Shown here: piece after piece, positions 30,429-64,000 of the stretch
Numbering within the stretch: the stretch's first letter is position 1
Layout of the letters: each line of letters opens with the position of its first letter
Source of the DNA: an uncultured Gammaproteobacteria bacterium
GTDB taxonomy: Bacteria > Patescibacteriota > Microgenomatia > UBA8517
Direction of reading: 5' to 3'
Assembly (NCBI GenBank): GCA_964635715.1
Contig: CAZWNZ010000001.1
Location: forward strand, 248,122-312,121
DNA length: 64,000 nt
Notes under the pieces: model-generated
Seen by the model: only the letters and a program-made list of their open reading frames with translations
Told to the model about the DNA's origin: nothing
Databases searched by the model: none
Translations under genes and position numbers: made by a program

Positions 30429-30464
<36 letters not shown>

Positions 30465-30600
30465 TCCAAGATTAGGATTCCATATTAAATCCCCCGTAGA
30501 AGACGGGGTTGATCGGCAGGCACTGGAAGATCTGTAAGGGTTTAAGGTAACCTGTACGAATAGATTGATTCTTGCGATCCCACACATGTGGGGCGCGACC

Positions 30601-30718: not shown

Positions 30719-30840
30719 TGTTCTGGTGGTCAGTGCGAAGTGGCACCACCTGATCCCTTTCCGAACTCAGAAGTGAAACGCTTTAGCGCAGACGATAGTT
30801 TACGGGCAACTGTACGCGAAAATATGTCACCGCCAGAACA
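30719..30840 (+). rRNA. rrf: 5S rRNA
   Basis: gttctggtggt...ccgaactcagaagtgaaacg...cgccagaaca. Confidence 0.9.
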
Positions 30841-45115: not shown

Positions 45116-45299
45116 TTTTGTTCGAACACTTCTGGCGCCAGTACTCCGGAAATAAATTGCAGCTTGCTGCTTTTGAAATAAAGAGACATTGGTTGTCATG
45201 AAGGTTTGCTAGTGCGGTAGAGACATTAATCTAAAAATTAATAACAACTCTACCGCACAGCAATAAAAATAAAGTTTGTGATAAACTCTTCTTAAATCA

Positions 45300-45875: not shown

Positions 45876-45972
45876 GCTATACTAATACTTGTTATCTTCG
45901 AGTTCTGTCCGGATTTCGCAATTTTTATGTTTTTGCATAATTCATGATTCATAATTCCTAATTCTATTTTGT

Positions 45973-47349
45973 ATGCCAAGAAAAACTGTTAGTAAAATTC
46001 AAAGAGAAGAAAAAGCTGATATACAGTCTTTAGTTGGAACCCCGAGCACGACCGAGGGGATTTCAGCTGTGGCAGAAAATGTTGCAGACGCTGATAGTGG
46101 GGTAGCAATGGCTCCTGTTACAGAAAAACCTCTAGTCGAAAAGCCGCTCATAGTTGATGACAGAATGATTCCTGATGCAGGTCTTCCGACAGAGAGCGTC
46201 ACCGGAGTACTCGACATTGCCAATGAGGGAAGCGGACTTCTAAGACCTGTAAGTTTTGCCCCAAGTGATCGTGATATCTATATTTCAGCATCCCAAATCA
46301 GGAGATTTAGCCTTAGGGTTGGTGACACAATTACCGGACAAGCAAGACGTCCGAAGGAGAATGAAAGATATTGGGGACTTCTGAAAGTTGAAAAGGTGAA
46401 TGATGAGCTGGTTGAAAAAGTCGGTCAAAGGCCGGATTTTGACAGTATGACAGCCGTATACCCTGATGCACAAATTGTACTTTCGACCGATAAAGATACA
46501 TTAACTACCAGAATGATAGATTTAGTCGCTCCAATCGGTTTTGGACAGCGCGCATTAATCGTTTCTCCTCCCAAAGCGGGTAAAACTTGGCTTGTAAAAG
46601 ACATTATCAAAGGCATTGCTGGTAATTATCCTGAGGAAGGGAAACTAAAAGAAGTTAATGGAAAAGAAAGACCGGTTCACATAATGGCAGTCCTTATTGG
46701 TGAGCGCCCTGAGGAAGTAACTGATATTGTAAGGACAATGAAAGAAGTAACGGGAGGTTGCGGAGAAGTTGCCGCAAGCAATTTTGATGAAGCACCATCC
46801 GATCAGACAAGGGTAGGAGAATTGGCTCTTGAGAAAGCCCGACGCATGGTTGAAATGGGACATCATGTTGTAATAGTCCTGGACTCCATTACCAGAATGG
46901 CCAGGGCTTACAATTTAGCCCTTCCAACAAGCGGTCGCACTCTTTCGGGAGGTTTTGACCCGATGGCTCTTTTTCCGGCCAAGAAATTCTTTGGCGCTGC
47001 CAGGAACATTGAAAACGGGGGAAGTTTGACCATTATCGGAACATGCCTTGTTGATACGGGCTCCAGAATGGATGATCTTATTTATGAGGAGTTTAAAGGA
47101 ACTGGTAATATGGAGCTTCATCTCGATAGGAAATTGGCTGAAAGAAGGATATTCCCGGCAATAGATATTGCACGTTCTGGTACAAGACAGGATGAGCTTC
47201 TTTTCGGAATGGAGAAGTTAAGAAAAGTTAATACTTTGCGCCGTATGATTGACTTGATGAACGATGATGAAAAAACTCTTACTCTTACCGACAAGCTTTT
47301 GAAGTATGAAACCAACGACGAGTTTTTAGACTCCCTAAAAACTGCTTAA
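45973..47349 (+). CDS. rho: transcription termination factor Rho with an N-terminal low-complexity extension
   Basis: GQRALIVSPPKAGKT Walker A, GERPEEVTD, RMARAYN, FFGAARNIENGGSLTIIGT, FPAIDIARSGTR. Confidence 0.85.
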   Translation: MPRKTVSKIQREEKADIQSLVGTPSTTEGISAVAENVADADSGVAMAPVTEKPLVEKPLIVDDRMIPDAGLPTESVTGVLDIANEGSGLLRPVSFAPSDRDIYISASQIRRFSLRVGDTITGQARRPKENERYWGLLKVEKVNDELVEKVGQRPDFDSMTAVYPDAQIVLSTDKDTLTTRMIDLVAPIGFGQRALIVSPPKAGKTWLVKDIIKGIAGNYPEEGKLKEVNGKERPVHIMAVLIGERPEEVTDIVRTMKEVTGGCGEVAASNFDEAPSDQTRVGELALEKARRMVEMGHHVVIVLDSITRMARAYNLALPTSGRTLSGGFDPMALFPAKKFFGAARNIENGGSLTIIGTCLVDTGSRMDDLIYEEFKGTGNMELHLDRKLAERRIFPAIDIARSGTRQDELLFGMEKLRKVNTLRRMIDLMNDDEKTLTLTDKLLKYETNDEFLDSLKTA

Positions 47350-47400
47350 TTTCTTCAGAATGTGATTGACAAGTTAATTCAGGTGATCCATATTTAATTT

Positions 47401-48150
47401 ATGGATCCTACATTTACTCAAAAAATCCAAACTCCCGTATCTCAAGAGAGTTGTTGTTGTTCAAATTTTACCTTTAAGAAAGTTTTGGCAATTCTTGGAT
47501 TTGTTTTTGTGGTTTTAGTTTTATGGCAGTGGATCAGTTCTCCTATGGTGGTAACAGTTACAGGGACAGGGGAGGTTTCAGTTCCTGCGACGAGTGCCAC
47601 TGTGACCACCACAATTTCAGTAAATTCCGATTCAGCCCAAAATGCGATTAACGCAATTAAAGACAAGTCGAATTCTATTAAAACCGTACTTATGAACAAT
47701 GGAGTTGCCGAATCGGACATTTCAGAATCCCAAATTACTTCCTATCCTGCAGGATTAGTTACAACAGGTGCAACAGGTTATCAGGCAGCAATACAAGTGG
47801 ACGCAAAAACAGATCATGTCTCAACTATTGATGGTCTAATTGCCAATCTATACTCGGCTGGAGCCACATTAGTTTCCCAACCGGTTTTAAGTGTTGAGAA
47901 CCAAGGCGAACTGGAACAACAGGCATCGGATGCTGCAATCAAAGATGCAAAGACTCAAATTTCAAAAATTTCCTGGAAAAATTTAAGATTTATTAGGAGA
48001 AAGGTGGCTCTTTATGAAGATGAAGGTGAAACAACATCGACGACCACTTCAAAGGCTGACGTTGTGACAGGCTCTCAAAATCAACTGGCTGTTCAGAATG
48101 GGGTATTTAAGATAACTAAAACTGTATCCGTCTCCTACAAACTGTGGTAG
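47401..48150 (+). CDS. SIMPL/DUF541 (YggE-like) domain protein
   Basis: TM anchor, then VTGTGEVSVPATSATVTTTISV...; family resemblance. Confidence 0.5.
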   Translation: MDPTFTQKIQTPVSQESCCCSNFTFKKVLAILGFVFVVLVLWQWISSPMVVTVTGTGEVSVPATSATVTTTISVNSDSAQNAINAIKDKSNSIKTVLMNNGVAESDISESQITSYPAGLVTTGATGYQAAIQVDAKTDHVSTIDGLIANLYSAGATLVSQPVLSVENQGELEQQASDAAIKDAKTQISKISWKNLRFIRRKVALYEDEGETTSTTTSKADVVTGSQNQLAVQNGVFKITKTVSVSYKLW

Positions 48151-48204
48151 ACAATTGTAGTGGCGGTAATTGTTTCCATTTTTGCATTTTCCCCTTGACG
48201 ATTA

Positions 48205-50151
48205 TTATTTACGTATTGTAGTTGGCGTGTAGTTATAAAAAGCTGGGAATTCATTATAAGTTGTTGGAATAGAATAGACATTAAATAGGGACTGATTTTG
48301 GTTTATTTCCTGAATCATAGTTTGTTGAATTTGTGGAAGTTGTTCAAATTGGGTTAGTTTATAAGAAACTAGTGACTCTCCTGATTGTAAGGTTGCTGTA
48401 ACCCTATTTGCGCCATCAACAGTATATATCTTTCCTCCATATTGAGTTATTCTGATTGGATCCAAAGTTCCACCCTCTTGTAATATTTGCTTTAATTGTG
48501 GAACTGTTTGCATATTGTAACCTGGTTCATGAGGGCTTAATAAGTTGATATCGATTTGTCCAGTTGAATTTAGTGAAAAAGTTGTTTTCTTTGTTGCAGT
48601 ACCTATTAAATTGCTTGTAGAATTTGTTAGCTGGATCATTGCCATAGGATCTCCTTGAATAGCTGCAACATATGCAACACAGGCATCAGAATATGGATTA
48701 TTAATACATGAGGCTGTTCCGACACCGACCCCTGCATATCCAACTACAGCACCTGTTATGGCAGCAGCAGTTTGTACACTTGCAGGAAGCGTGGTAAGGT
48801 ATGCCGTTCCGTACGAGTACGCCAACAGACCCAACTCTCCTAACGCTGGGCCTGCCAAAGCGGTAAGTATTGCAGTATCTCCAATAGCAACCGCCGTATT
48901 TAGATTTGTTTGGGTTGTGTCTATTGTGACAATCGGGTTGGCCTTGCAGGTTTTGCTTGTGTCAAAAATACTTCCACCTAAAGTTTGGCTTCCTGAGTAA
49001 CAATTACCTGATTCACATTCATTGTCGCTGCCGCAAGTTAACCCATTTGCCTTGAGTTTTATTGATCCACAGCTACAAAATCCGGACAAGCACGTTCCCG
49101 TATTTCCCGGTACCTGACTTGCGCAATTGGAGGCACATGTGATTGTTTCACATACATTTTGAGTTGTTGTACATGGGTAACCAGACGAGTGTCCGCATGC
49201 CCCAACATAAATATTATTAACACAAAGACACCCTGCATTTACTATTGGCACAGAAGTTGGTACAGGAGTAGGTGTCGGGCTGGGTGTCATGATTTTGCAA
49301 TCACTATCACTGGCACAATATGATGTAGGGCAAGTTTGAGAATATGGAACTGTTGTAGAAGTTGCTACACATGATACTCCGGAACAATTTCTCACAGTAC
49401 AATTCCTACTCGACGGTGTGGGAGTGGGGGGTGTCGGCCTGCGACAATAACAGTAAGAAAATGATCCGGACGCTGTACAATCTTTCTTTTCAAGCCCCTC
49501 ACAACAGTCTCCCATACCACTTGCAATAACGGAACCTTCTCCTATGCATGTTGTACTATCATCATCGTTACCGCCAGTTATGGGTGGATCTGTTGGTTGG
49601 GGATCGGAATTGCAGTCGGAATTATCTTCACAGTCATTTAAGTATGGATCACAATGACTGCTTTTTTTAACACAACTTCCTGACGAACATGTGTTACAAG
49701 GCAGAATGTCGTTGTCGCTATCATCATCTTCACTGTCGTCATCTGATGAATCGTCATTGGGTGGATCTGCTCCGCAATCTTGGTTGTCTGCGCACTGAGA
49801 CGATGGACAAGAACTGCCCCTTGCAACATATACGGTAGTAGCTATGCAGGAAACTCCACTACATTTTTTAATTGAGCAAGGTGTGGTGGAAGGGGACGCA
49901 CTGGGACTTGGAATTTCAACACACACTTTACAACCTCCGGATGTGGCACATCTGTATCCGGTGCCACAATCAGAATTAACCTCACATTCATTATCCAGAC
50001 AAATTGCTTTCTCTGCAAAATTTAGGCTGATATTTCTGTTGTTGGCAACGACCGTACCAACAATAGCAGTAATCAAAAGAAATCCAATGCCAATCAAACT
50101 CAAAGGATCAATAAATCCTCTTGAATATTTTGATTCATTTTTATCAGGCAT
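48205..50151 (-). CDS. signal-anchored Cys-rich surface protein with an acidic poly-Asp/Ser linker
   Basis: N-terminal TM; repeated CxxC/CxC modules; DDSSDDDSEDDDSDND tract; PTPTP linkers; ~230-aa C-terminal Cys-free domain. Confidence 0.5.
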   Translation of the reverse strand: MPDKNESKYSRGFIDPLSLIGIGFLLITAIVGTVVANNRNISLNFAEKAICLDNECEVNSDCGTGYRCATSGGCKVCVEIPSPSASPSTTPCSIKKCSGVSCIATTVYVARGSSCPSSQCADNQDCGADPPNDDSSDDDSEDDDSDNDILPCNTCSSGSCVKKSSHCDPYLNDCEDNSDCNSDPQPTDPPITGGNDDDSTTCIGEGSVIASGMGDCCEGLEKKDCTASGSFSYCYCRRPTPPTPTPSSRNCTVRNCSGVSCVATSTTVPYSQTCPTSYCASDSDCKIMTPSPTPTPVPTSVPIVNAGCLCVNNIYVGACGHSSGYPCTTTQNVCETITCASNCASQVPGNTGTCLSGFCSCGSIKLKANGLTCGSDNECESGNCYSGSQTLGGSIFDTSKTCKANPIVTIDTTQTNLNTAVAIGDTAILTALAGPALGELGLLAYSYGTAYLTTLPASVQTAAAITGAVVGYAGVGVGTASCINNPYSDACVAYVAAIQGDPMAMIQLTNSTSNLIGTATKKTTFSLNSTGQIDINLLSPHEPGYNMQTVPQLKQILQEGGTLDPIRITQYGGKIYTVDGANRVTATLQSGESLVSYKLTQFEQLPQIQQTMIQEINQNQSLFNVYSIPTTYNEFPAFYNYTPTTIRK

Positions 50152-50283
50152 AATTTATTATGTCTTATTGATTGGAATATTCAAGAAGATTCAAATGGGT
50201 ACATTTTTTGAACCCCGCTTAAGTTTGCTTCACTCATTTTCATAATGTATTATCAAGACTCTGTACAAAGTACTTTGTCTTAG

Positions 50284-51387
50284 GTGCTGAAATCTATGGA
50301 AAAAAATTTTGAAATTATTCTCGAGATCTGGGAAGAATTAAAAACCTTCTTTTTTGAGTTAATAAATTTTATTTTTAAAAGTTTGCACATTAGTTTCCTG
50401 AAGATCGAAGAAAGAAAGGGCATTGTTGTTACAGCCCTGTATAAGAAAAGAGGTAAACTGTCCAGAACCTTGAGTCATTCGGGGATGGCGGCGATCGCTG
50501 CACTGGGAGTCATGTTGGCACCTCTTATTGCGCAAGAATTTCCCGGAAAATCAGTTGATCCATGGGAAATATCCGCTGCTCCATCAGTACTTTCTGCCTC
50601 AACAGACGATCCGACAGTTGATACACAAATATCTAGTAAGGTAAGGGATAGTATTATTGATTATGTTGTTCAGGAGGGTGATACAGTTGCGTCAATTGCT
50701 GAAAAATTTGGTGTTTCGGAAGATACTATCCGTTGGAAAAATGATTTAACAAAAGACAGAATAAAAATCGGAGAGACTCTTAAAATTTTACCGACGACGG
50801 GTGTTGTTCATACGGTTGTAAAAGGGGATACTGTTTACTCCATAGCTAAAAAGTACGATGCGGTGGCACAGGCGATAGTTGATTTTCCTTTCAATACTTT
50901 TACTAACGATGAGACATTTGAATTAGCAATTGGGCAAACAGTAATTGTACCTGATGGCGTTATGCCTTCTGTCCAGACAACCACCAGAACCAGGCAGATA
51001 ACTCCAAACGCCGGTACCGTAACTGCTTCGGGACAATTTGTTTGGCCAACCAATGGATCCATCACTCAGAGATTCTCTTGGTATCATCCCGGACTTGATA
51101 TTGCCAATCCAAGTGGTCCGACAGTTGTTGCGGCAGACTCCGGTAGAGTTGTGTTTGCGGGTTGGGATTCGACAGGCTATGGATATATGGTTCTTATCGA
51201 TCACGGTAACGGATATAAGACTCGTTACGGACATCTTTCCCAGGTAATGGTTATATCGGGTCAAACTATCGGTAGAGGACAGGCCGTCGGCAGAATGGGA
51301 AATACGGGACATTCGACCGGTACTCACCTTCACTTTGAAATTTACTTTAATGGAGTAAGATATAACCCCCTGAATTACCTCAAATAG
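50284..51387 (+). CDS. LysM-LysM-M23 peptidoglycan endopeptidase
   Basis: Two LysM motifs (GDTVASIAEKFGVS, GDTVYSIAKKY) and M23 motifs HPGLDIA ... GNTGHSTGTHLHFEI. Confidence 0.8.
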   Translation: MLKSMEKNFEIILEIWEELKTFFFELINFIFKSLHISFLKIEERKGIVVTALYKKRGKLSRTLSHSGMAAIAALGVMLAPLIAQEFPGKSVDPWEISAAPSVLSASTDDPTVDTQISSKVRDSIIDYVVQEGDTVASIAEKFGVSEDTIRWKNDLTKDRIKIGETLKILPTTGVVHTVVKGDTVYSIAKKYDAVAQAIVDFPFNTFTNDETFELAIGQTVIVPDGVMPSVQTTTRTRQITPNAGTVTASGQFVWPTNGSITQRFSWYHPGLDIANPSGPTVVAADSGRVVFAGWDSTGYGYMVLIDHGNGYKTRYGHLSQVMVISGQTIGRGQAVGRMGNTGHSTGTHLHFEIYFNGVRYNPLNYLK

Positions 51388-51456
51388 AGTAATATTATTA
51401 GCTTTTGGTGCCTAGATTCTAATTCCTAATTTCTAGCTACTAGCTACTTGTTGTCC

Positions 51457-51617
51457 TAGTGAGTGGACTCGCCGGGAATTGTGTGCACAATATCACACCC
51501 GAGCACTATCGATTCCCAAGAGGGCACGAACTTTAGTGAGTGGACTCGCCGGGAATTGTGTGCACAATATCACACCCGAGCACTATCGATTCCCAAGAGG
51601 GCACGAACTTTAGTGAG
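51457..51617. repeat. two tandem 77-bp direct repeats plus a third partial copy; each begins with the 3'-terminal 17 nt of tRNA-Ala(CGC) plus 7 nt of trailer
   Basis: Units at 51457-51533 and 51534-51610 are identical by eye; the third copy at 51611 runs into the tRNA. Confidence 0.85.
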
Positions 51618-51688
51618 TGGACTCGCCGGGAATTGAACCCGGAACTTATCAATGCGAATGATACGGTATACCGTTTGCCTACGAGCCC
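51618..51688 (-). tRNA. tRNA-Ala (anticodon CGC) with G3:U70; the D arm is atypical
   Basis: Reverse complement: GGGCTCG ... anticodon stem-loop TATCA-TTCGCAT-TGATA ... T arm CCGGG-TTCAATT-CCCGG ... CGAGTCC-A. Confidence 0.65.
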
Positions 51689-51897: not shown

Positions 51898-53745
51898 ATG
51901 CCCAAAAATACATATACAGTTAAAGAGGTTGCCAATCTTCTGGAATTTTCTACAAATACAGTTTACAAGTATCTTGATGATGGCAGTATTAAGTCGGTTC
52001 GTTTTGGGAGTGAGGGCCGATTCAGGATTCCCAGGACAGAAGTCGAACGTCTTCTTCAAGAGAGAGGGAAAACTTTACCTGAAGATTCAACCATATCAAA
52101 AAACCAAAATTTACATGGAATAAGAGGAATCCCTAGTTTATTTGATTGGTTTGTTGCATTTTTATCTATTTCGATAGGGTTTTCAATTTTTATCTTTCCT
52201 GTTCCAAGCGCTGTTCGGGTGGTCTTTGATCTAAATAAGTTTGTCATTCCGCTTCAGGTGATTTTATTGCTTGGTGGTTTTCTCATCTTGGTCTTGGATA
52301 TGTTTAGGATGCATGACAGCCGCCTACGCAAATCTATAAATTTAATTGTTGGAATTGACTACTTGGTAACAGCTCTTGTGTTTGCTTTTGCGGACAATTT
52401 TCCCTTGACCGTCGGTTATTTGGCGGTTGCATTTATTGTTATATTGTCAGTTTTTATAAAAATGGGCCAATATACAAGATTTCTGCTTTTTATAAACCTA
52501 TTGCTTGTTTTTCTGGGGATAGGAGTTTTGGGTTGGCCTGATACGTTTTTTCTTGCCGGTGTAATCGGAGTAAATTCAAAAAACTTAATAATTTTCTTTT
52601 CGATATGGTCACTTTTGATGATATTTAATGTTTACATGACATATTTTGCAATCAGAAAAAATAAACACCTTGTTTGGTTTCTTGCATTTCCAACAGCTCT
52701 AACATCTCTTTTGTATGCAACGATTAGTTTTACACAAGGGCTTTGGGCTAAGGCGATTTATTGTGTTGTTTTGTCGTCTTTTGCCGTAATTTTCCCCTTT
52801 GCTGACGAATTTGAAGCATTTACTCTGAAGTCAAAAAAAGAGGTGGCTGCCAGTTTTGCATGGCTTCTTGGTCTTTTCCTGGTCGGATCACTCATGCTTT
52901 ACTATATCTTTCGTTCATTTCAAAGTTATGGCTTCTTAGAACTGACTAATAGAGTCGATACCGCTAGTGATATTGTCACAAATTTCATGGATGGAAATAT
53001 CGCAAAGATCTCTGCATTTGCTGTCGACGAGGAGTTGATCGGTGCTATAGAAAACTATTCCGGGGACAATATCAATTTGGCAAATAATAAATTGAAACAA
53101 CTATACCAAGCGTCCAATTGGTCGATTCGAAGAGTGGTGTTAGTTGATAAGAACGGGATAATTCTCGATACATATCCTCTGAACCCATCAAGTCAGGGTG
53201 TAGATATTAGTAAACGTGACTATTTTGAAAGCGTTAAGGTAGGTGGTCAAACTTTCGTGTCGGGGATCGAGCAACCAAGCTCATCAGGACTCAGCCCTGT
53301 GGTTTTGGTTTCAGTTCCCATAATCGATTCTAGCGGAGATTTTTTGGGAGTTGTTATGGGAGATACCGATTTGGATGAACTTACAAGAAGAGTTAATCAA
53401 ATTAAATTTGGACAAAGTGGAAGTTATTTATTAGTAGATCAATTGGGTAAATATATCATTCCACCAACTAAGGATCAGATAATGGCAAAAGCCTCTGCCG
53501 GAAGTCCCGCATCGATGGTAGTTTTGGGTGAAAAAGGTACTTTGCAAGGAGAAGATTCTTTGGGAGAACTTTCTTTAATTGCCTATGTAAAAGTTAATAA
53601 ATACAGTTGGGGTATAGTGGCTCAACAACCGGTTGATGAGGCATTCAATCCATATAGCAAAACTGTCTTTATCACGTTTCTGATATATGTAACAGCAGGG
53701 GTAGGAAGTTTAATTCTTGTATTTTCGTCACAGAGAAAGCAATAA
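51898..53745 (+). CDS. fusion protein: excisionase-family HTH, then a polytopic membrane domain, then an extracytoplasmic Cache-like sensor domain and a final TM
   Basis: N-terminal VKEVANLLEFSTNTVYKYLDDGSIKSVRFGSEGRFRIPRTEVERLL (HTH_17 / excisionase-like); about 10 TM; the C-terminal ~230 aa look like dCache; last TM VFITFLIYVTAGVGSLILVF. Confidence 0.5.
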   Translation: MPKNTYTVKEVANLLEFSTNTVYKYLDDGSIKSVRFGSEGRFRIPRTEVERLLQERGKTLPEDSTISKNQNLHGIRGIPSLFDWFVAFLSISIGFSIFIFPVPSAVRVVFDLNKFVIPLQVILLLGGFLILVLDMFRMHDSRLRKSINLIVGIDYLVTALVFAFADNFPLTVGYLAVAFIVILSVFIKMGQYTRFLLFINLLLVFLGIGVLGWPDTFFLAGVIGVNSKNLIIFFSIWSLLMIFNVYMTYFAIRKNKHLVWFLAFPTALTSLLYATISFTQGLWAKAIYCVVLSSFAVIFPFADEFEAFTLKSKKEVAASFAWLLGLFLVGSLMLYYIFRSFQSYGFLELTNRVDTASDIVTNFMDGNIAKISAFAVDEELIGAIENYSGDNINLANNKLKQLYQASNWSIRRVVLVDKNGIILDTYPLNPSSQGVDISKRDYFESVKVGGQTFVSGIEQPSSSGLSPVVLVSVPIIDSSGDFLGVVMGDTDLDELTRRVNQIKFGQSGSYLLVDQLGKYIIPPTKDQIMAKASAGSPASMVVLGEKGTLQGEDSLGELSLIAYVKVNKYSWGIVAQQPVDEAFNPYSKTVFITFLIYVTAGVGSLILVFSSQRKQ

Positions 53746-53785
53746 ACCGACAAATAAATTGGAAAAACAAAAGTTAAAAAATAAA

Positions 53786-56700
53786 ATGGCGGGAAAAAAG
53801 GAAAAATATCAAGCGGGAATAACACCGCTTTTAGTTTTAATAACAGTGGCAACATCTTCAATCCTGGTGTTTACCGGTGGATTAACGTTTAATAATTTGA
53901 AAAACAAGGGAATATTAAATTTTACGGATCCAACTCTTAGAAATATTATTAGCCAACAAGCTGATTATTTGGATTCCTCCAAGCTTAACAAGTCACGCAT
54001 TGAAGGAGGCCTTGTTGGAACAGTACTTTTGCCGGACGGATCATACTCGGCTTATAAGATTCTGGATGGGAACATAGAAAGTAAAGGATCGAAGTTTACC
54101 GGTGAGGTAAGGATTTCATTTTTTTCCGATGATGTAGGGCTTAGTAATTACACAGACGGAAACATTAACCCATTTTATTTAATGGATGGGACTAAAACGG
54201 TGGGGGTAATTGTAGACAGGATGCTTGCGAATTTGAACGATGGGGATACAAGTCATGCAATTAAAATATTAAAAGGAACCGTTAAAAACAATTCTCTTAC
54301 AGGAGAATTTGTAGCCCAGACGTTGGATACAGGATATTATATTGGAGGTTTTGTTGAGGATGATGGTCGAATAACGAGTGCTACAGTACTCACCGGTGCT
54401 CCGAGGCTTACGGAAGCTCAGATTTCGATAGCAGAAAATGCTCTTTCAGTTCTGCCTTTATTTAAAAATGTTACCGCTGACCTTGCCACACCTAGCGATG
54501 CCAACATTTTAGGAGAGTCAACCATTGCTACATCAAAATCTGATTTAGGGAAGCTAAATAAGCCGGTTTTTAATAAAAAAACAGGTACATGGACTTTCGT
54601 TGGGTCAGGAGATGGGGGAGCGGTTTCAACCTCTGCAATGCAGGGAGTTGTGAATTATATTCAAAATATCGCCGAAACCATTTCGACATCGCCTTCTGCA
54701 GGACAGGTTGTACAGCAAATTGTCCAGAATGTTGTTCAGGGTATAAGTGAAATAAAAAGTGCAAATTCAAAACTAACTGTATCGACAGAAAACAATGTCT
54801 CAACTCTTTCACTTGATCTATCCGGGATTACAGCATCGGGGGTAAATGACGGATCAGTTAATCCCTCAGGACTCGTTCATTCAAATACCCCCATAGACGG
54901 CCAGTGCTTGACCTACAACAGTTCTACAGGAGGTTTTACATGGAGTTCTTGCGGTTCGGGTGGAGGAGGAACAATAACCGATGTAATAGCCGGTGATGGT
55001 CTGGTGGGCGGAGGAACAACCGGAAGTATTGACTTGGCGATTAATCCGCAAACAGGCGGGGGATTGGAAGCGGCCACGTCAGGAATTTCTTTAAACAGAG
55101 AATGTGCAGATGGAGAAATTCTGAAATGGACAGAAAGCACCTCCTCTTGGGATTGTGCTGCAGACAACGGAGGAGTGGGGGGGGGAGTTTCAACTCTCCA
55201 AGTTGACGACTCGACCATTGTTTCGTCAGCAACTGTGATTGATTTTTTGGGTTCAGATTTTGATTTAACAAATTCGCCGACTGGTGAGGGTAATTTGTCA
55301 ATTGACTACACTAACTCCAAAATAGTCAGAAGTGATCAAAATCAATCAATAAACGGCACCTGGACATTCTCTACGGCTCCTGTTATCTCAACAATTTCAA
55401 ATACTGGAGTCCTGACGCTTCCGACTTCAACAGATACTCTTGTAGGCAGAAATACCAGCGACATATTGACCAATAAAACAATCACAGCGGGATCAAATAC
55501 TATTTCGGGTCTTACAGCAAGTAATCTAACCGCCGGTGATTTTTCGACTAAGATTAATTCCGGTACTTATTCAATTAATATTTCGGGCAATGCCGGAACT
55601 GTTACAAATGGTATTTATACAACAGGAAGTTATTCCAACCCTTCCTGGATCACAAGTCTTTCTCCTGCAAAAGTTCTTCCCGACCAAACAGGAAACAATG
55701 GAAAGGTCCTTAGTACAAATGGTTCGGCTTTGTCCTGGATCACCGATTCTTCAGGGGTTGCCTGGGGAGCAATCACAGGGACTTTGTCAGACCAGACAGA
55801 TTTAAATACAGCCCTTTCAGGAAAACTTTCAACAACTGGATCTGCCGCCAATTTGACCAATTTCCCGACATTCAATCAAAACACAACTGGAACTGCAAGT
55901 AATATCACAGGAGTACTTGGTGCCATATCATTTCCGGCTCTTGATGGAGATGTGACAACTATACAGGGAGATCTGACAACAACAATTGCCAGTGGGGCAG
56001 TAACTTTAGGTAAGATGTCCAGTTTGGCGGCAAATTCAATAATCGGTAATAATACGGGAAGCTCGGCAACACCGGTTGCATTAACAACCACACAAGTTAA
56101 GTCTTTGTTATCAATTGCAAATACTGATGTGTCAGGATTGGGTACAATGTCTACCCAAAATGCAAATAACATATCCATTACGGGCGGAAGCATCTCTGGG
56201 CTTAGCTCAGTTGGGGCGACTACGTTCACGGGTGCATTGACGGGTAATGCAAGTAGTGCCACAACTGCCACTACCGCAACCACAGCCAACGCTCTCGCCA
56301 ATTCAGATTCTGCGGGTCAATCCGCAATCACAGCCATTAATTCGGCTACTGCGGGCACCCTTAACACAGCACGTCTTAACTCGTCTGTTACAACCCAGGG
56401 AAATACATTTAACGGAGTTTCCCAACTGGTTAAACTTGACACATCAGGATATCTTCCGACTATTAATGGATCATTATTAACAGGACTTGCCAAATCTCAA
56501 GTTGGCCTTTCTTTAGTTGAAAATACAGCCCTTTCTACTTGGGCGGGGACTACTAATGTAAATACAATTGCGGATAAAACAGTCACTTTAGCCAGAATGG
56601 CTGATATGGCAACTGCGTCATTCCTCGGAAGAAATACTGCAGGAACAGGATCACCTGAAGTTCTATCAATTTCGACTGCTAAATCAATACTATCCCTTTC

Positions 56701-59700
56701 TACGGGTGATATTTCAGGTCTTGGAACGATGGCCACTCAAAACTCAAACAATGTTTCCATTTCCGGAGGATCTTTATCGGGTCTAACCTCAGTTGCTTCC
56801 ACCACTTTTACAGGTGCATTAACCGGAAATGCCTCAACAGTTACAAACGGAGTCTACACCAATGGTTCCTATTCAGACCCTTCCTGGATTACAGCAATAT
56901 CTCCAACTAAAGTTTTGCCAGATCAAACAGGACAAAATGGAAAAGTACTTTCAACTAACGGTTCAACTTTATCCTGGATTACCAACTCATCAGGTGTGGC
57001 TTGGGGAGCAATCACAGGGACTTTGTCAGACCAGACAGATTTAAATACAGCCCTTTCAGGAAAACTTTCAACAACTGGATCTGCCGCCAATTTGACCAAT
57101 TTCCCGACATTCAATCAAAACACAACTGGAACCGCCGCAGGACTTTCATCAGTGTTGGTTTCAACCATGGGTGGATCAGGAGTGAATAATGCTGGAACTC
57201 TAACCTGGGGAGCAGGTGGAACTTTAGGAACAGCGGCCTATACCGCCAGTACCGACTATGCAACTTCAGCCCAGGGAACATTGGCAACAAATGCATTACC
57301 ATCGGCGTCATTCACTGATGCGGCGGTTACGGGAAAACTTTTGACAGGTTACATTAGTGGTGCAGGTTCAGTTTCCGCCACCGACACAATTCTTCAAGCC
57401 ATTCAGAAACTGAACGGAAATGATGCCACAAATGCTAACTTAACGGGAGTTGTTACCTCAATCGGAAATGCAACATCCATTGCCGATGGTGCAATTACTA
57501 ATGCAATGCTTGCAAACGGTGCTGTTGCCAATCTTTCAGGCACGAACACAGGCGACAATGCGGTAAATTCCAATTACGCTTCCGATTATCGTGCAGCTAA
57601 TTTTGTTGCGGGGACAAATTATCTAACTCCTACAGGATCAGCCGCCAGCCTAACCAATTTTCCAATTCTCAACCAAGATACAACGGGGAATGCGGGAACG
57701 GTTACAAACGGGGTATATACAAGCGGCAGTTACTCAGATCCAAGCTGGATTACTTCGCTTTCACCGACAAAAGTCCTTCCTGATCAAACAGGACAAAATG
57801 GAAAAGTACTTTCAACTAACGGTTCAACTTTATCCTGGATTACCAACTCATCAGGTGTGGCTTGGGGAGCAATCACAGGGACTTTGTCAGACCAGACAGA
57901 TTTAAATACAGCTTTATCAGGCAAATTAGGTACCGGACTTACATCTGCCAACGTCTTTGTAGGTAACGGATCGGGTGTTGCGACAGGAGTTTCCATGAGT
58001 GGAGATGTAACAATTGATAATACCGGGGCTACGACTATTGGAAATTCCAAAGTTACACTTGGAAAAATTGCAAGTATTGCAAATAATACCATTCTGGGAA
58101 ATAGATCGGGTAGTGCGGCAGCACCCTCCGAACTTTCTGCGTCGGATGTTAAAAGTATTCTATCGTTGTCAACCTCTGATATCTCAGGTCTGGGAAGTAT
58201 GGCAACTCAGAACGCAAATAGCGTTTCTATATCAGGTGGATCTTTATCAGGTCTTACTTCAGTTGCTGCAACTACATTCACAGGTGCTCTGACGGGCAAT
58301 GCATCTACTGTTACAGGTCTTTCCGTCACAAGCGGCAAGACCTTAACTGTCCAAAAATCAATGACACTTACATCAGCCGATGACACAGGTGTCTACACAT
58401 TCCCAACAGGAACAGCCACACTTCTTTCAACAACAGGATCAGCAGCCAGCCTTACAGACTTCCCAACATTTAATCAAAATACAACAGGTACTGCTGCAAA
58501 TATCACGGGAGTTTTGGGTGCAAGTTCTTTCCCAGCCATGTCAGGCGATGTTACAAACACACAAGGAAGTTTAACTACGGCCATTACTTCCGGGGCGGTC
58601 ACTTTAGGCAAAATGGCTAATTTAGCAGCCAACTCCATCATAGGCAACAATACCGGGAGTCCTGCAACACCTGTTGCTCTTACCAATACTCAAGTTAAGA
58701 CCCTTCTTTCTATCGCCAATACCGATGTTTCAGGCCTTGGAACAATGTCTACCCAAAACTCCAACAATGTCTCAATCACAGGCGGCTCATTATCTGGTCT
58801 TACATCGGTTTCTGCAACAACATTTACCGGTGATTTAACAGGTAATGCCGGAACTGTTACAAATGGAGTTTATACAAATGGTTCGTATTCAGATCCTTCT
58901 TGGATCACAGCTCTTTCCCCAACAAAAGTCCTTCCTGATCAAACAGGACAAAACGGAAAAGTATTGGGTACTGACGGATCCAATCTTTCTTGGGTAACCA
59001 ACTCATCAGGTGTGGCCTGGGGAGCAATCACAGGAACATTATCCGATCAAACAGACTTAAATACCGCATTGGGGCTAAAAGCAAATACTTCCAGTCTTGG
59101 GACAATTTCTTCTCAAAATGCTAATGCAGTTAACGTCACAGGGGGAACAATCGCCGGACTGACAGGATTTTCAATCAGATCATCAGGTTCAGGTGCTTTT
59201 GATTTAACGATAAACAATACCGAAAACTTGACGGCAGGTCGGGCTCTTACAATTACAACAGGAGACGCTGCAAGAACTTTGACATTGACGGGCGACTCAA
59301 GTATTTCAGGCACGAACACAGGTGATAATGCGGTAAATTCCAATTACGCTTCCGATTATCGTGCAGCTAATTTTGTTGCAGGAACGGATTATTTAGCACC
59401 GAGTGGAAGCGCTGCCAGTCTCACTAATTTCCCGACATTCAATCAAAACACAACTGGAACCGCAAGTAATATCACAGGAGTACTTGGTGCCACATCATTC
59501 CCGGCTCTTGATGGAGATGTGACAACTATACAGGGAGATCTGACAACAACAATTGCCAATGGGGCAGTTACCTTAGGCAAAATGGCTAACCTTGCCGCAA
59601 ACTCAATAATAGGAAATAACACGGGAGACCCGGCAACACCAATCGCTCTGACTGCTACTCAGGTAAAATCTCTTCTTTCCATTGCAAATACTGATATTTC

Positions 59701-62700
59701 CGGATTGGGGACCATGTCTACCCAAAATTCCAACAATGTTTCAATTTCTGGAGGTTCATTATCTGGTCTTACTTCCGTTTCGGCTACAACATTTACAGGG
59801 GCACTAACTGGAAATGCCAGTTCAGCAACTACTGCCACAACTGCGACAACCGCAAACGCTTTGGCAAACACCGATTCCGCAGGACAATCTGCTATTACAG
59901 CAATCAATTCAGCTACAAGCGGAACGATTAACGCTTCAAGAATTGCATCTCTCCCATATATTTCAACAACCTTAAATTCCGGAAATGTATTAGTAGGGAA
60001 TGGAAGCAATGTTGCAACGGGTGTATCAATGAGCGGGGATGTAACGATTGACAACACCGGAGCTACAAGTATAGGAAACGGCAAAGTAACTTTAGGAAAG
60101 ATTGCCAATATTGCAAATAGTACAATTCTTGGAAATAATTCAGGGAGTGCAGGAGCACCAATTGCATTAACAGCCTCACAAGTTAAATCGGTTCTTGGAA
60201 TATCAACAGGTGATGTATCAGGTCTTGGAACCATGGCTGCACAAAATTCCAACAGTGTTTCGATTTCTGGTGGATCGATCAGTGGTGTGACTGTTGGAGG
60301 AACCGCTACGGGGTTATCAATTTCAGGATCGTCAAACACTTTATCAAATATCGGCAACTCCAGCCTTACCAATTCTTCAGTCACAATTAACACCAGCGGG
60401 ATCCTGTCGGGCGGCGGAAGTTTATCACTTGGGGGAACTCTCAATCTTTCTGCAACCGAGGCAGATACTCTTTCTGCAGTTACAAACAGAGGAGCGTCAA
60501 CCTCTGATGGTATTACTCTTTCTTCGGCCTCTCCGTTAACTCTTTCTGATTCTGCTCCGGTCTTAACTTTGGGCACAGGTGATGCTGAAGGTGTACTAAC
60601 CATCAAAGATTCTAATGGCACACCACATACACTTTTAACTTTAACTGACATAGGTACAACTGGTAATTTGTCGGTTACAGGCACACTTAATGGAGCAACT
60701 ATCACGGGTGGTTCTTTATCGGCAACCGCAGTTAATGGAGTTACAACAGGAAATATTGTTTTGACAAGTGGTTCGTATTCCAATCCGAGCTGGATTTCAG
60801 GACTTACAGCCAGTCACCTAACGGCAGGAGATTTTTCTTCTAAAATTAATTCCGGAACTTATTCTATTGATATATCAGGAAATGCATCAACTGCAACAAC
60901 TGCAACAAGCGCAACAAGTGCAACTTCTGCCACCAGTGCAGACTCAGTTACAGGACTATCAGTTACGGCAGGCAAAACTCTTACCGTACAAAAATCTATG
61001 ACATTTACGTCCGCTGACGATACTGGGGTTTACACTCTTCCGACGGGCACAAAAACGCTTGTATCGACAGATGTTTCAACTCTTTCCTCCCTGACATCAA
61101 TCGGAACCTTAACTGATCTTACGGTGACAAATGCAATTACCGGTTCGGTTACGGGCAATGCCGGAACTGTTACAAATGGTATTTATACAACAGGAAGTTA
61201 TTCCAACCCTTCCTGGATTACAAGTCTTTCTCCTGCAAAAGTCCTTCCTGATCAAACAGGACAAAACGGAAAAGTATTGGGTACTGACGGATCCAATCTT
61301 TCCTGGGTAACCAATTCTTCAGGTGTTGCCTGGGGAGCGATAACGGGAACTCTTTCTGATCAAAGTGATCTAAATACAGCTCTTTCAGGAAAGCTTAGTA
61401 CTTCTTTAACTTCAGCCAATATCTTTGTTGGTAATGGGTCTGGAGTGGCAACAGGTGTTGCCATGAGTGGGGATATCACAATTGACAACACAGGAGCGAC
61501 AACAATTGGTAATTCCAAAATTACTCTGGGGAAGATTGCCAACATCGCAGATGGAACCATATTAGGAAATAACTCAGGAAGTAGTGGAGCTCCAATTGCT
61601 CTTACCGCGTCTCAAGTTAAATCGCTTCTTTCTATCGCCAACACCGACGTATCAGGCTTGGGGACTATGTCCACTCAAAATGCTAACAATGTCTCAATTA
61701 CAGGTGGAAGCATGTCAGGATTAACGTCTGTATCAGCAACTACATTTACAGGGGCACTAACTGGAAATGCCAGTTCAGCAACTACTGCCACAACTGCAAC
61801 AACTGCGACAACTGCAAACGCTTTGGCAAACACCGATTCCGCAGGACAGAGTGCTATTACTGCTATAAATAGTGCAACAACCGGTACTATTAATGCGGCC
61901 AGAATTGCATCTCTTCCTTATATCTCAACATCCTTGGCTTCGGCCAATATAATCGTTGGTAATGGATCAGGAGTTGCCACTGGTGTTGCCATGAGTGGAG
62001 ATATAACTATCGACAATACCGGAGCAACAACAATTGGAAACAGTAAAGTCACCCTTGGAAAGATTGCAGATATGGCAACAGCCTCATTTATTGGAAGAAA
62101 TACTACAGGAACAGGTGCTCCTGAGGTTCTTTCAGCCTCAACTGCCAAATCCATCCTTGCCATTGCCAACACAGATGTATCAGGTTTAGGGACCATGTCT
62201 ACCCAAAATGCCAATTCGGTGTCAATTTCTGGAGGATCAATCGGCGGAGTGACAATAGGAGGGACTGCATCAGGTCTTACCCTCGCCGCGGGAAGCAATA
62301 CTTTAAGTGGAATAACAGCATCCAATATGACAGCGGGGGATTTTTCGGGCGTAGTTAATACAGGAAGCTATTCCATTAATGTATCAGGTAGCGCCGGATC
62401 AGTTACGGGACTTTCTGTTACAGGAGGTAAAACTCTAACTGTTCAAAAATCTATGACATTTACGTCTGCTGACGATACTGGGGTTTACACTCTTCCGACG
62501 GGCACAAAAACACTTGTATCAACAGATGTTTCAACACTTTCTTCTTTAACTTCGGTCGGAACATTATCAACTCTGGGTGTCTCAGGTGCAATAAGCGGTG
62601 CGACTTCTACAAATACTATTAATGGAATAATTATTAATTCGGGAGCCGTCTCGGGTGTTACAACACTGGGAGCATCCAGTACTGTGACTATCGGAAGCGG

Positions 62701-63286
62701 CGGAAATACTTTTACATTTAACCCCGCAAGCGGTCCAACCTATGCAGGTGCAGCCAGACCTGACAGACGGGAAGAATTGATTCCCGAATTCCCCGGAGCT
62801 GTTTTAACCGGTAGTGGAACAGGTACTATGACATCTGATTTCTGTGCAGCATCAGCGGGTGTTGGTGGACTTACCGCAACCAATACTACGGTTTGTAACA
62901 CCTCAGGAGACACACACAATTATTATAATTGGACAACTTCTCAAGGGACTGCTCAAACATATTCAATCTATTTGAAATGGAGAATCCCGGATAATTTCTC
63001 GGCATGGGATGCCAGTAATTCAGTTCAAGCGTATGCTAAAAGGAGTGACGCCACAAATGGGCATGTAAATATAAAAGTTTACGATACTGCAAATGCTCTA
63101 AATAATTCCGGCGGAACTGAAGTTGCAGGAACTGCAAATACCTGGGTGCAAAATGGAATTAATATATCCGGCGGTACTTGGACAGCCGGTAGCTACATGA
63201 CTATCCAGATAGATATTACGGCAGCTGCAAGTGGTGGAGTGACGGATGTGGGGGAAATCAATCTTAATTATTTCACTACGAACTAG
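53786..63286 (+). CDS. giant (~3170 aa) modular repeat surface protein: N-terminal signal anchor, shuffled repeat modules, C-terminal jelly-roll/lectin-like domain
   Basis: Single ORF; recurring modules NPSWITxLSPxKVLPDQTGQNGKVL, SSGVAWGAITGTLSDQTDLNTAL, QNANNVSI(T/S)GGS(L/I)SGLTSV and VQKSMTFTSADDTGVYTLPTGT; several copies are nucleotide-identical. Confidence 0.7.
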   Translation: MAGKKEKYQAGITPLLVLITVATSSILVFTGGLTFNNLKNKGILNFTDPTLRNIISQQADYLDSSKLNKSRIEGGLVGTVLLPDGSYSAYKILDGNIESKGSKFTGEVRISFFSDDVGLSNYTDGNINPFYLMDGTKTVGVIVDRMLANLNDGDTSHAIKILKGTVKNNSLTGEFVAQTLDTGYYIGGFVEDDGRITSATVLTGAPRLTEAQISIAENALSVLPLFKNVTADLATPSDANILGESTIATSKSDLGKLNKPVFNKKTGTWTFVGSGDGGAVSTSAMQGVVNYIQNIAETISTSPSAGQVVQQIVQNVVQGISEIKSANSKLTVSTENNVSTLSLDLSGITASGVNDGSVNPSGLVHSNTPIDGQCLTYNSSTGGFTWSSCGSGGGGTITDVIAGDGLVGGGTTGSIDLAINPQTGGGLEAATSGISLNRECADGEILKWTESTSSWDCAADNGGVGGGVSTLQVDDSTIVSSATVIDFLGSDFDLTNSPTGEGNLSIDYTNSKIVRSDQNQSINGTWTFSTAPVISTISNTGVLTLPTSTDTLVGRNTSDILTNKTITAGSNTISGLTASNLTAGDFSTKINSGTYSINISGNAGTVTNGIYTTGSYSNPSWITSLSPAKVLPDQTGNNGKVLSTNGSALSWITDSSGVAWGAITGTLSDQTDLNTALSGKLSTTGSAANLTNFPTFNQNTTGTASNITGVLGAISFPALDGDVTTIQGDLTTTIASGAVTLGKMSSLAANSIIGNNTGSSATPVALTTTQVKSLLSIANTDVSGLGTMSTQNANNISITGGSISGLSSVGATTFTGALTGNASSATTATTATTANALANSDSAGQSAITAINSATAGTLNTARLNSSVTTQGNTFNGVSQLVKLDTSGYLPTINGSLLTGLAKSQVGLSLVENTALSTWAGTTNVNTIADKTVTLARMADMATASFLGRNTAGTGSPEVLSISTAKSILSLSTGDISGLGTMATQNSNNVSISGGSLSGLTSVASTTFTGALTGNASTVTNGVYTNGSYSDPSWITAISPTKVLPDQTGQNGKVLSTNGSTLSWITNSSGVAWGAITGTLSDQTDLNTALSGKLSTTGSAANLTNFPTFNQNTTGTAAGLSSVLVSTMGGSGVNNAGTLTWGAGGTLGTAAYTASTDYATSAQGTLATNALPSASFTDAAVTGKLLTGYISGAGSVSATDTILQAIQKLNGNDATNANLTGVVTSIGNATSIADGAITNAMLANGAVANLSGTNTGDNAVNSNYASDYRAANFVAGTNYLTPTGSAASLTNFPILNQDTTGNAGTVTNGVYTSGSYSDPSWITSLSPTKVLPDQTGQNGKVLSTNGSTLSWITNSSGVAWGAITGTLSDQTDLNTALSGKLGTGLTSANVFVGNGSGVATGVSMSGDVTIDNTGATTIGNSKVTLGKIASIANNTILGNRSGSAAAPSELSASDVKSILSLSTSDISGLGSMATQNANSVSISGGSLSGLTSVAATTFTGALTGNASTVTGLSVTSGKTLTVQKSMTLTSADDTGVYTFPTGTATLLSTTGSAASLTDFPTFNQNTTGTAANITGVLGASSFPAMSGDVTNTQGSLTTAITSGAVTLGKMANLAANSIIGNNTGSPATPVALTNTQVKTLLSIANTDVSGLGTMSTQNSNNVSITGGSLSGLTSVSATTFTGDLTGNAGTVTNGVYTNGSYSDPSWITALSPTKVLPDQTGQNGKVLGTDGSNLSWVTNSSGVAWGAITGTLSDQTDLNTALGLKANTSSLGTISSQNANAVNVTGGTIAGLTGFSIRSSGSGAFDLTINNTENLTAGRALTITTGDAARTLTLTGDSSISGTNTGDNAVNSNYASDYRAANFVAGTDYLAPSGSAASLTNFPTFNQNTTGTASNITGVLGATSFPALDGDVTTIQGDLTTTIANGAVTLGKMANLAANSIIGNNTGDPATPIALTATQVKSLLSIANTDISGLGTMSTQNSNNVSISGGSLSGLTSVSATTFTGALTGNASSATTATTATTANALANTDSAGQSAITAINSATSGTINASRIASLPYISTTLNSGNVLVGNGSNVATGVSMSGDVTIDNTGATSIGNGKVTLGKIANIANSTILGNNSGSAGAPIALTASQVKSVLGISTGDVSGLGTMAAQNSNSVSISGGSISGVTVGGTATGLSISGSSNTLSNIGNSSLTNSSVTINTSGILSGGGSLSLGGTLNLSATEADTLSAVTNRGASTSDGITLSSASPLTLSDSAPVLTLGTGDAEGVLTIKDSNGTPHTLLTLTDIGTTGNLSVTGTLNGATITGGSLSATAVNGVTTGNIVLTSGSYSNPSWISGLTASHLTAGDFSSKINSGTYSIDISGNASTATTATSATSATSATSADSVTGLSVTAGKTLTVQKSMTFTSADDTGVYTLPTGTKTLVSTDVSTLSSLTSIGTLTDLTVTNAITGSVTGNAGTVTNGIYTTGSYSNPSWITSLSPAKVLPDQTGQNGKVLGTDGSNLSWVTNSSGVAWGAITGTLSDQSDLNTALSGKLSTSLTSANIFVGNGSGVATGVAMSGDITIDNTGATTIGNSKITLGKIANIADGTILGNNSGSSGAPIALTASQVKSLLSIANTDVSGLGTMSTQNANNVSITGGSMSGLTSVSATTFTGALTGNASSATTATTATTATTANALANTDSAGQSAITAINSATTGTINAARIASLPYISTSLASANIIVGNGSGVATGVAMSGDITIDNTGATTIGNSKVTLGKIADMATASFIGRNTTGTGAPEVLSASTAKSILAIANTDVSGLGTMSTQNANSVSISGGSIGGVTIGGTASGLTLAAGSNTLSGITASNMTAGDFSGVVNTGSYSINVSGSAGSVTGLSVTGGKTLTVQKSMTFTSADDTGVYTLPTGTKTLVSTDVSTLSSLTSVGTLSTLGVSGAISGATSTNTINGIIINSGAVSGVTTLGASSTVTIGSGGNTFTFNPASGPTYAGAARPDRREELIPEFPGAVLTGSGTGTMTSDFCAASAGVGGLTATNTTVCNTSGDTHNYYNWTTSQGTAQTYSIYLKWRIPDNFSAWDASNSVQAYAKRSDATNGHVNIKVYDTANALNNSGGTEVAGTANTWVQNGINISGGTWTAGSYMTIQIDITAAASGGVTDVGEINLNYFTTN

Positions 63287-63306: not shown

Positions 63307-64000
63307 GAAAATAAAATATGTTCATTAATTCGGCCAAAATTCGATTAAAAAAAAGATCCAAAAGGATTATAAAAAGTTTGGCTGTTTTTCTTCTGGTTGC
63401 TTCCTGGCTTTTGACAGGATACCCCGGTTTTTGGCTGAGTCCGGTAAGGGCCGCAACCACTACGGTTTTCTTGACAACGGCAGATTCTTCCCCTTGGACA
63501 GTTCCCAACAACTGGGGAGGAATGGTATCAATTGAGGTAATTGGAGGGGGGCAAGGCGGAACTAAAGGTGTACAAGGAGGCAATGGAGGAGTGGGAGGAG
63601 ATGGCGGGGGCTACGCAAAAATAACATCGGGAATTACTACAACAGCAGGAAGTACGATTTCTTTTCAAGTAGGTACAGGGGGGAGTGGTGGCTCGTCTCC
63701 CGGCAATGGTGGTGATACTTGGTTTAGTTCGACATCGACTGTTTTGGCGAACGGAGGGGGAAGCTCTACCTCGAGGGTCGGGTCGGTAACTTATGCGGGT
63801 GGAGCTGGGGGAACAGCTTCCTACAAGGGAGGCGGAGGTGGAGGTGGGGCTGCTGGTCCGATTAAAACAACAACGGGTATCGGTAAAGATGGGGGAGACT
63901 CTCTATCAAGTGCTTTAGGTGGCGGCGGCGGAGGCGGAGCGGAGGGAGATAGTGCTACTGCCGGCGGTACCACAATTGACTCATCTTTTGGATCGGGCGG
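63307..64000 (+). CDS. Gly-rich secreted protein, 3'-truncated by the window end
   Basis: MFINSAKIRLKKRSKRIIKSLAVFLLVASWLL signal anchor, then GGGQGGTKGVQGGNGGVGG... repeats; not in the ORF track because no stop falls in the window. Confidence 0.45.

Follow-up and report, generated by a model that had tools for sequence, protein, structure and literature searches.

A giant anchored protein with a shaft of phage tail-fibre-type modules and a conserved C-terminal jelly-roll domain in a Patescibacteria-like chromosome

Results

A single giant gene and its architecture

The window analyzed here, a 64,000-nucleotide (nt) stretch of contig CAZWNZ010000001.1, comes from a Patescibacteria-like organism that is closest, by gene and synteny, to Candidatus Woesebacteria UBA8517. 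Our subject is one giant gene near its end, which encodes a repeat-rich protein. The list of open reading frames (ORFs) of the window gives an uninterrupted frame on the + strand (53717..63286), within which the ATG at 53786, picked because it aligns with the N-terminal ends of orthologues including the 2,712-amino-acid (aa) protein P0138, is the probable start, for a product of 3,166 aa and a stop at 63286. An initial annotation of the window had described a single ORF of ~9.5 kb with an N-terminal anchor, modules rich in Thr, Ser, Gly and Asn and a distinct, non-repetitive C-terminus, and these features are all borne out: the frame is unbroken from ATG 53786; aa 15-33, after a Lys-rich leader, are the only segment of the protein above the transmembrane (TM) threshold in a hydropathy scan; the four residues make up 51% of the protein, with Glu and Arg each below 1% and a very low charge; and the C-terminus (~190-236 aa) has no match elsewhere in the gene or the window. 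That annotation overlooked that the first ~520 aa are non-repetitive as well, since self-comparison splits the protein into a unique part up to aa ~520, a mosaic of modules (~521-2930) and a unique C-terminus (2931-3166). The layout is as follows:

53786..63286, + strand: giant gene (ORF list and translation; start by alignment with P0138).
53786..53890, + strand: leader and anchor, aa 1-35 (Lys-rich cytoplasmic leader, then a single hydrophobic anchor).
53891..55345, + strand: unique N-terminal ectodomain, aa 36-520 (~485 aa), without internal repeats by protein self-comparison.
55346..62575, + strand: shuffled array of tail-fibre-type modules, aa 521-2930 (~2,400 aa), from repeat families D1-D8, protein self-comparison and homologues with phage tail-fibre domains.
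62753..63283, + strand: jelly-roll domain at the C-terminus, aa ~2990-3166, conserved and with two invariant Cys (3020 and 3037).

The same type of N-terminal anchor is found in five other proteins, of 1,529, 1,903, 2,204, 2,342 and 2,712 aa, which share the layout of leader and anchor. In all six a conserved Gly precedes the hydrophobic stretch, as it would in a type IV pilin-like class III signal peptide (G|F-T-L-I-E, with Glu at +5), but there is no FTLIE-type motif, no Glu at +5 and no Pfam N_methyl match. Two pairs of Cys residues, 374/389 and 440/457, lie within 'G.(C)L.....G...W..C' motifs of the N-terminal ectodomain. Searches of Pfam, NCBIfam and the PDB sequences with the whole protein returned no match, and PHROGs gave one weak match only (PHROG 33080, on module A, see below). 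The Pfam and NCBIfam scans gave no SLH, CWB or S-layer family match, and nothing supports a role in an S-layer, to whose adhesin repeats the motifs had been likened. The sortase motif LP.[TSA][GAN] is absent from the whole protein, which ends in '...GEINLNYFTTN'.

We considered and rejected several known classes. The motifs of RTX, LPXTG or pilin proteins are absent. A polymorphic toxin or Rhs protein does not fit a C-terminus that is conserved, neither variable nor toxin-like. The target of a diversity-generating retroelement does not fit either, no template/variable repeat pair for the C-terminus having been found in the window and the fold not being that of a C-type lectin.

A shuffled array with short tracts of exact identity

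Modules of ~20-120 aa fill the array in differing orders, and both the repeat families and the self-comparison agree with the earlier description of shuffled, recurring modules. Module A ('SYSxPSWI...GKVL..GS.LSW...WGAITGTLSDQTDLNTAL') is present in five copies and a truncated sixth, the C-core ('SGLGTMxTQNxNNVSIxGGS') in eight, and at least five further module types in two to five copies each, their order varying. Three features of the array are needed for what follows:

55583..55882, + strand: module A copy 1 (family D2; other copies start at 56822, 57683, 58838 and 61151).
56099..56191, + strand: C-core module copy 1, 'K.LLSIANTDVSGLGTMSTQNANN.SI.GGS' (family D4; other copies start at 56681, 58151, 58697, 59666, 60185, 61619 and 62147).
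56921..57132, + strand: mosaic tract in module A copy 2 (left part, 56921-57051, equal to copy 3; right part, 57002-57132, equal to copy 1).

The copies are well diverged. Those of module A are 67-74% identical to the reference copy in DNA and show 69-82% identity in protein over 100 aa, the eight copies of the C-core are 63-80% identical in DNA, and across the repeat families the figure is 60-87%. In pairs of module A copies, codon position 3 holds 36-54 of the 66-100 differences per pair (for example 37 of 66), and this concentration at the third position of the + frame indicates that the copies are old and have been under purifying selection as protein. In keeping with it, other ORFs within the gene, in alternate frames or antisense (for example 59659-60783 on the minus strand), are regarded as by-products that the repeat composition gives rise to. 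The copies do not follow the fixed period of 290-430 aa suggested before: their start-to-start spacings run from 519 to 2,598 nt. Every spacing is a multiple of three, so that unequal exchange would preserve the reading frame.

The initial annotation had also taken several copies to be identical at the DNA level. This does not hold for whole copies, only 60-87% identical, but it does hold for tracts within them. The exact-repeat scan recovered two tracts of 131 nt (55763-55893 = 57002-57132, and 56921-57051 = 57782-57912) and shorter ones of 67, 67, 58, 56, 53 and 50 nt, lying in copies that are otherwise ~70% identical. They exceed chance: among 20,000 permutations that kept the codon-position classes, none reached the observed runs of 131, 93 or 67 nt. 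They also explain the recurring peptides that had been noticed in alternate frames. The two longest tracts meet in module A copy 2, and the 50-nt core of the mosaic is common to copies 1, 2 and 3. This pattern looks like gene conversion or recombination. The UBA8517 orthologue has no exact repeat longer than 47 nt.

Such a pattern calls for weighing a technical origin, in which a collapsed or chimeric assembly, or polishing with short reads, produced the long ORF, the repeat number or the 131-nt tracts. It would fit the two longest tracts being of exactly the same length and symmetric (81 + 50 + 81 nt) in one copy. A contig of the same organism assembled from short reads (Logan, from SRR8925806; 100% identical to 44932-51486) stops inside a perfect 77-nt repeat nearby, the database homologues of the C-terminal domain are for the most part fragmentary and come from short contigs, which shows that genes of this type do break up assemblies, and an exact-sequence look-up of the giant protein in a public collection found no match. 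On the other hand, 9.5 kb are free of stops in a genome of ~40% GC, it is at codon position 3 of this very frame that the copies mostly differ, identity tracts of several lengths join different pairs of copies, and two separate public records of the 2,712-aa orthologue show the same N-terminus, C-terminus and synteny. An artefact could alter copy number or tracts; it could not create the gene, and we consider this origin improbable.

The shaft modules are homologous to those of phage tail fibres

A search with aa 560-870 recovered 182 homologous proteins, and the 120 that were listed are all 200-550 aa long. Of the homologues that have a precomputed Pfam family, nine were scanned again; they carry tail-fibre or baseplate domains (T4_gp9_10_N, BppL_N, Mtd_N, Peptidase_S74, K1-lyase_C, Phage_T4_gp36 or PTR), DUF5907 or DUF2793. 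Module A shares 80% identity over 54 aa with P0016, a protein that sits in a cluster of tail-fibre-like genes, and it has relatives in at least 300 viral contigs of IMG/VR (the 80 that were kept are 45-87% identical). From the Pfam domains of the homologues, the identity to P0016 and the relatives in IMG/VR, we conclude that the rod is drawn from the module pool of phage tail fibres, so that what had been noted as a resemblance is a direct homology of the modules. In GenBank phages, a tblastn search with the same segment found only 24 'hypothetical proteins' of Rhodobacter phages, covering the C-module. A monomer model of modules A-B-C made with AlphaFold2 (AF2) is poor (predicted local distance difference test, pLDDT, 62.6; predicted template modelling score, pTM, 0.27), and consists mainly of coil, apart from a single hairpin and three short helices; this is compatible with a piece of an obligate oligomeric fibre and is no proof of one.

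The homology could mean that the gene is the tail fibre of a prophage, a tailocin or another phage-derived element lodged in the chromosome, and a tRNA gene with a triplicated, att-like 3' end does lie 2 kb upstream. The surroundings are nevertheless cellular. The window is chromosomal, with 16S, 23S and 5S rRNA genes, tRNAs and genes for Rho, a SIMPL protein, an M23/LysM peptidase, S1, a RadA-like protein and a sortase. No phage structural gene was found among the window ORFs scanned, and no structural, packaging or integrase genes were found in the flanks here or at the orthologous locus, where position and neighbours are conserved between species. The protein itself begins with a Lys-rich leader and a TM segment, without any Pfam or PHROG match, in place of a domain that docks to a baseplate or tail, and a scan of 2.9 million viral contigs for its C-terminal domain gave no confirmed relative. 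We regard a phage element as very improbable.

A C-terminal domain shared across Patescibacteria

The C-terminal domain is defined by the motif 'ARPxR..L.PE(F/Y).GA.L..GTMTSDFC...C..H.YY.WT' and a terminal GEI.L.Y strand. In the family alignment M, S, D, F and C...C...H..Y.W are invariant, and the Cys pair among them fits an extracytoplasmic domain. A word-index search with the C-terminus found 15 homologues, mostly fragments of the kind mentioned above and one of them named Candidatus Andersenbacteria. An exhaustive profile search, in which the window protein seeded the profile and so matches by construction, extended the family to 1,763 cluster representatives at E <= 1e-3, of which 1,344 remain at E <= 1e-10. 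Half of the 28 genome loci with the domain (14, in species-representative genomes) are titled as belonging to the candidate phyla radiation (CPR): Woese-, Gottesman-, Magasanik-, Peri-, Gracili- and Saccharibacteria, WWE3 and 'Patescibacteria group'.

Twelve contigs of metagenome-assembled genomes with the domain (L004, L006-L012, L016, L022, L025 and L030) carry other titles, namely uncultured Pseudomonadales (10), Gammaproteobacteria (1) and Planctomycetia (1). Either these labels are wrong or the domain is present outside Patescibacteria.

No Pfam-A or NCBIfam model matches the domain (no Pfam match at E <= 1), nor does any PDB sequence. Its fold is the beta-sandwich jelly-roll of carbohydrate-binding modules (CBMs) such as CBM61, and the structural alignments with CBMs and MAM show 6-16% identity; its sequence belongs to none of the curated CBM families. 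The domain is thus lectin- or CBM-like by fold and stands outside any curated CBM family.

A second conserved element, the N-terminal domain 'INFQG(K/R)(V/L).N..G..V.DG.Y.F.F.IY', stands directly after the signal peptide in many family members (for example P0137, P0148, P0152, P0176 and P0209); these proteins, 600-3,900 aa long, thus combine it with the C-terminal jelly-roll.

The distribution of the domain bears on a second reading, in which the giant protein would help to build the surface layer of the cell that makes it and the jelly-roll would bind the cell's own wall polysaccharide, or act as a sorting or assembly signal, in the way of SLH, CWB2 or the C-terminal domains of the type IX secretion system and not as the tip of a distal adhesin. 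The domain ends at the C-terminus or 1-6 residues from it in all of the 150 matches listed, while the proteins that carry it range from ~110 to 3,899 aa and have very different N-terminal parts; many of its residues are invariant across distant CPR lineages; and most other carriers have cleavable-looking signal peptides in place of anchors, with no other obvious means of attachment, so that in those members the C-terminal domain could itself hold the protein on the cell. Envelope-related neighbours point the same way, with the M23/LysM peptidase and a Gly-rich secreted protein here and Wzy_C/TPR and SBBP beta-propeller proteins at the orthologous locus. Yet the giant protein and the five subfamily members examined already have an N-terminal membrane anchor and do not require a second, no SLH, CWB or S-layer family was matched, and the identities at the two ends of related proteins (see below) point to the exchange of a specificity module, not to a uniform anchor. 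We hold this second reading to be unlikely, if less so than the technical origin of the repeats.

Relatives differ in length, modules and ends

The closest relative found is P0138 (2,712 aa), whose gene is present both on an ENA scaffold (L002) and in Candidatus Woesebacteria UBA8517 (L003); the two public gene records are identical to each other at 8,116 of 8,139 nt. Both loci share with the window the gene order Rho, M23/LysM, HTH_17-dCache, giant gene. Compared with the window protein, P0138 is 53% identical over the first ~590 aa (593 aligned columns) and 89% over the last 240 aa, and the middle is not collinear. The word-index search with aa 1-345 found one further, partial homologue, and a metagenome scan with the same N-terminal 345 aa one distant locus on a 5.8-kb contig.

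Module A, present in 5-6 copies in the window protein, has 0-2 copies in five relatives, which amplify other modules instead. The size variation foreseen by the initial annotation is therefore borne out on an evolutionary scale, between species, with related proteins of 1,529-3,166 aa and very different module counts, and stays a prediction within a population.

The identities of the two ends are discordant. The window protein and P0141 are 27% identical at the N-terminus and 85% at the C-terminus, P0150 and P0149 are 42% and 88% identical, and P0138 and P0221, in the reverse direction, 75% and 44%. Such discordance is the pattern expected of an exchangeable tip, and at the level of sequence it suggests that tips may have been exchanged between members of the family.

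Neighbouring genes

Two genes flank the giant gene on the same strand:

51898..53745, + strand: HTH_17-dCache protein (Pfam HTH_17 and dCache_1; ~8 TM segments, extracellular dCache sensor and final TM by hydropathy).
63318..64000, + strand, cut by the window end: secreted Gly-rich protein (matches Pfam Gly_rich_2 with 30.5 bits; cut-off, 24.3).

In L002 and L003, too, the HTH_17-dCache gene is the immediate upstream neighbour of the orthologue, and its product is a candidate for a membrane-bound protein that regulates the locus. Giant proteins of other lineages with the same C-terminal domain (P0177, P0206, P0231, P0256 and P0272) have an HTH_17-like cytoplasmic domain and a TM segment fused directly to them. 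Fusions and adjacency suggest, as far as gene content can tell, that these surface proteins are linked to membrane-tethered DNA binding.

The secreted Gly-rich protein reported downstream is present, with its start at ATG 63318 and not at 63307, and it is 34% identical over 178 aa to the downstream gene in L003. There, at 10906-15527, the Gly-rich counterpart has 598 aa and is followed by a 926-aa protein with DUF7948 and an SBBP beta-propeller. The downstream genes suggest a cluster of surface-protein genes.

Some further features of the window were recorded. The sortase gene (38336-39022), 15 kb upstream of the giant gene, is followed up to 43780 by two secreted-looking proteins of no known family (350 and 968 aa), neither with a recognisable LPXTG. 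Directly 3' of the minus-strand tRNA-Ala(cgc) gene (51617-51688) lies the perfect tandem repeat of 77 nt (2.3 copies; 51457-51688), whose units each have the final ~25 nt of the tRNA at their end, and the tRNA 3' end is thereby present three times in an att-like manner. The rRNA operon (18374-30838) is split, with ~5 kb between 16S (18374-19969) and tRNA-Ile, tRNA-Ala and 23S; the gap holds ORFs, among them one on the minus strand for a 711-aa VirD4/TraG/HerA-like ATPase (21974-24109) and one with PT repeats. For 23S the match is 3,171 nt long where the model has 2,925 nt, and the gene probably carries an insertion.

Discussion

The explanation that we favor, and that we regard as probable though far from assured, is that the giant protein forms a fibre anchored to the cell, with a tip that binds glycans, and that recombination drives the evolution of both its length and its tip. 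Its N-terminal hydrophobic segment would act as a type II-like anchor that holds it in the cytoplasmic membrane with the remainder outside the cell. A lineage-specific base domain of ~485 aa would come next, then a rod of ~2,400 aa made of phage tail-fibre-type modules and, at the distal end, a disulfide-containing jelly-roll of the lectin or carbohydrate-binding-module type. The most likely ligand of this tip would be a glycan, carried either by a surface or by another cell that serves as host or prey. The array would evolve through in-frame recombination between diverged copies, by duplication, deletion and short tracts of gene conversion, and whole end domains would be exchanged among family members, so that both the length of the fibre and its tip would differ between related species. 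The data themselves give the architecture, the homology of the modules, the chromosomal setting, the fold class of the tip, the mosaic tracts of identity and the differences in length and modules between orthologues; surface exposure, the oligomeric structure of the fibre, glycan binding and the role in attachment are the parts of this picture that we infer. The episymbiont reading of the organism, to which an attachment role would be suited, seems reasonable given its Patescibacteria-like affiliation.

Several points weigh against this explanation. The resemblance of the tip to CBMs is one of fold only, at 13% identity and with no Pfam match. The many residues of the tip that are invariant across distant CPR lineages suit a common ligand, or binding to the cell itself, better than host-specific recognition, and in most other carriers, with their cleavable-looking signal peptides in place of anchors, the C-terminal domain could be what attaches the protein to the cell. 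The AF2 monomer of modules A-B-C, a poor model, lends no support to the formation of a fibre. Finally, an assembly artefact may have altered the repeat copy number, and read polishing may have homogenised the exact tracts, of which the two longest, oddly, both measure exactly 131 nt.

One of the closest systems known is that of the long tail fibres and receptor-binding proteins of phages, with which the giant protein shares homologous modules (up to 80% identity over 54 aa), a mosaic of shuffled order and an exchangeable jelly-roll distal domain. It differs from them in that its gene is cellular and syntenic between species, and in having a membrane anchor in place of a virion-attachment domain. 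It is also 5-10 times longer than the homologous phage proteins (200-550 aa), lacks an S74 chaperone and has a tip that was not found in viral contigs. The tip in turn departs from CBM61, CBM4, CBM6, CBM16, CBM36 and MAM in its identity of 6-16%, its lack of a family match and the absence of an attached glycoside hydrolase.

Among cellular proteins, giant membrane proteins of Vampirococcus lugosii (1,392-4,163 aa) have been proposed to serve in recognition and attachment (PMC8080830). They are likewise very large, membrane-localised, repeat-rich and from an ultra-small bacterium, but they carry WD40, PKD, integrin, fibronectin and DUF11 domains, none of which the giant protein has; it combines tail-fibre modules with an unmatched C-terminal domain. 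LPXTG-anchored MSCRAMMs, giant adhesins of the RTX/Bap type and trimeric autotransporters also present a long repetitive stalk with a terminal binding domain and repeat numbers that differ between relatives, whereas the giant protein has no LPXTG, RTX nonapeptides, Ig-like, cadherin or YadA domains and is anchored at its N-terminus. In Saccharibacteria, glycan-binding surface proteins are essential for epibiotic growth (PMC10633639), and giant adhesion-related proteins have been discussed more broadly (10.1101/2023.11.21.568195). A full-text literature search found no description of shafts of tail-fibre modules combined with this C-terminal domain family in CPR. The protein is of a known kind, that of giant repetitive surface or adhesion proteins, and what is new, in the literature searched, is the combination of such a shaft with this domain family in CPR.

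A broader idea can be put forward only tentatively, as we think it doubtful in its full form. Patescibacteria may have adopted, on their own cell surface, the modular design of phage receptor-binding fibres in secreted or anchored proteins that occur throughout the CPR, with an exchangeable lectin-like tip and shaft modules from the phage tail-fibre pool. Recombination in the array and swapping of tips might then tune how far the fibre reaches and how specific the recognition between episymbiont and host is, and the links to HTH_17 hint at signalling from the surface to gene expression.

Recognition of and attachment to partner cells in the ultra-small bacteria of the CPR is little understood beyond type IV pili and a few adhesins of cultivated Saccharibacteria. 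For assembly, our data carry a warning: most public homologues are fragments, and repeat numbers need long reads to be trusted. For biology, the shafts share their modules with phage tail fibres and appear to evolve likewise, through module shuffling, short conversion tracts and tip exchange. The C-terminal domain, which has ~1,760 cluster representatives but neither a Pfam nor an NCBIfam model, offers a means of listing candidates for surface or adhesion proteins across Patescibacteria. The interest of the family would rise if its tip is a determinant of host recognition and, should host glycans be what the tip binds, metagenomes could allow host range to be predicted from the tip variants.

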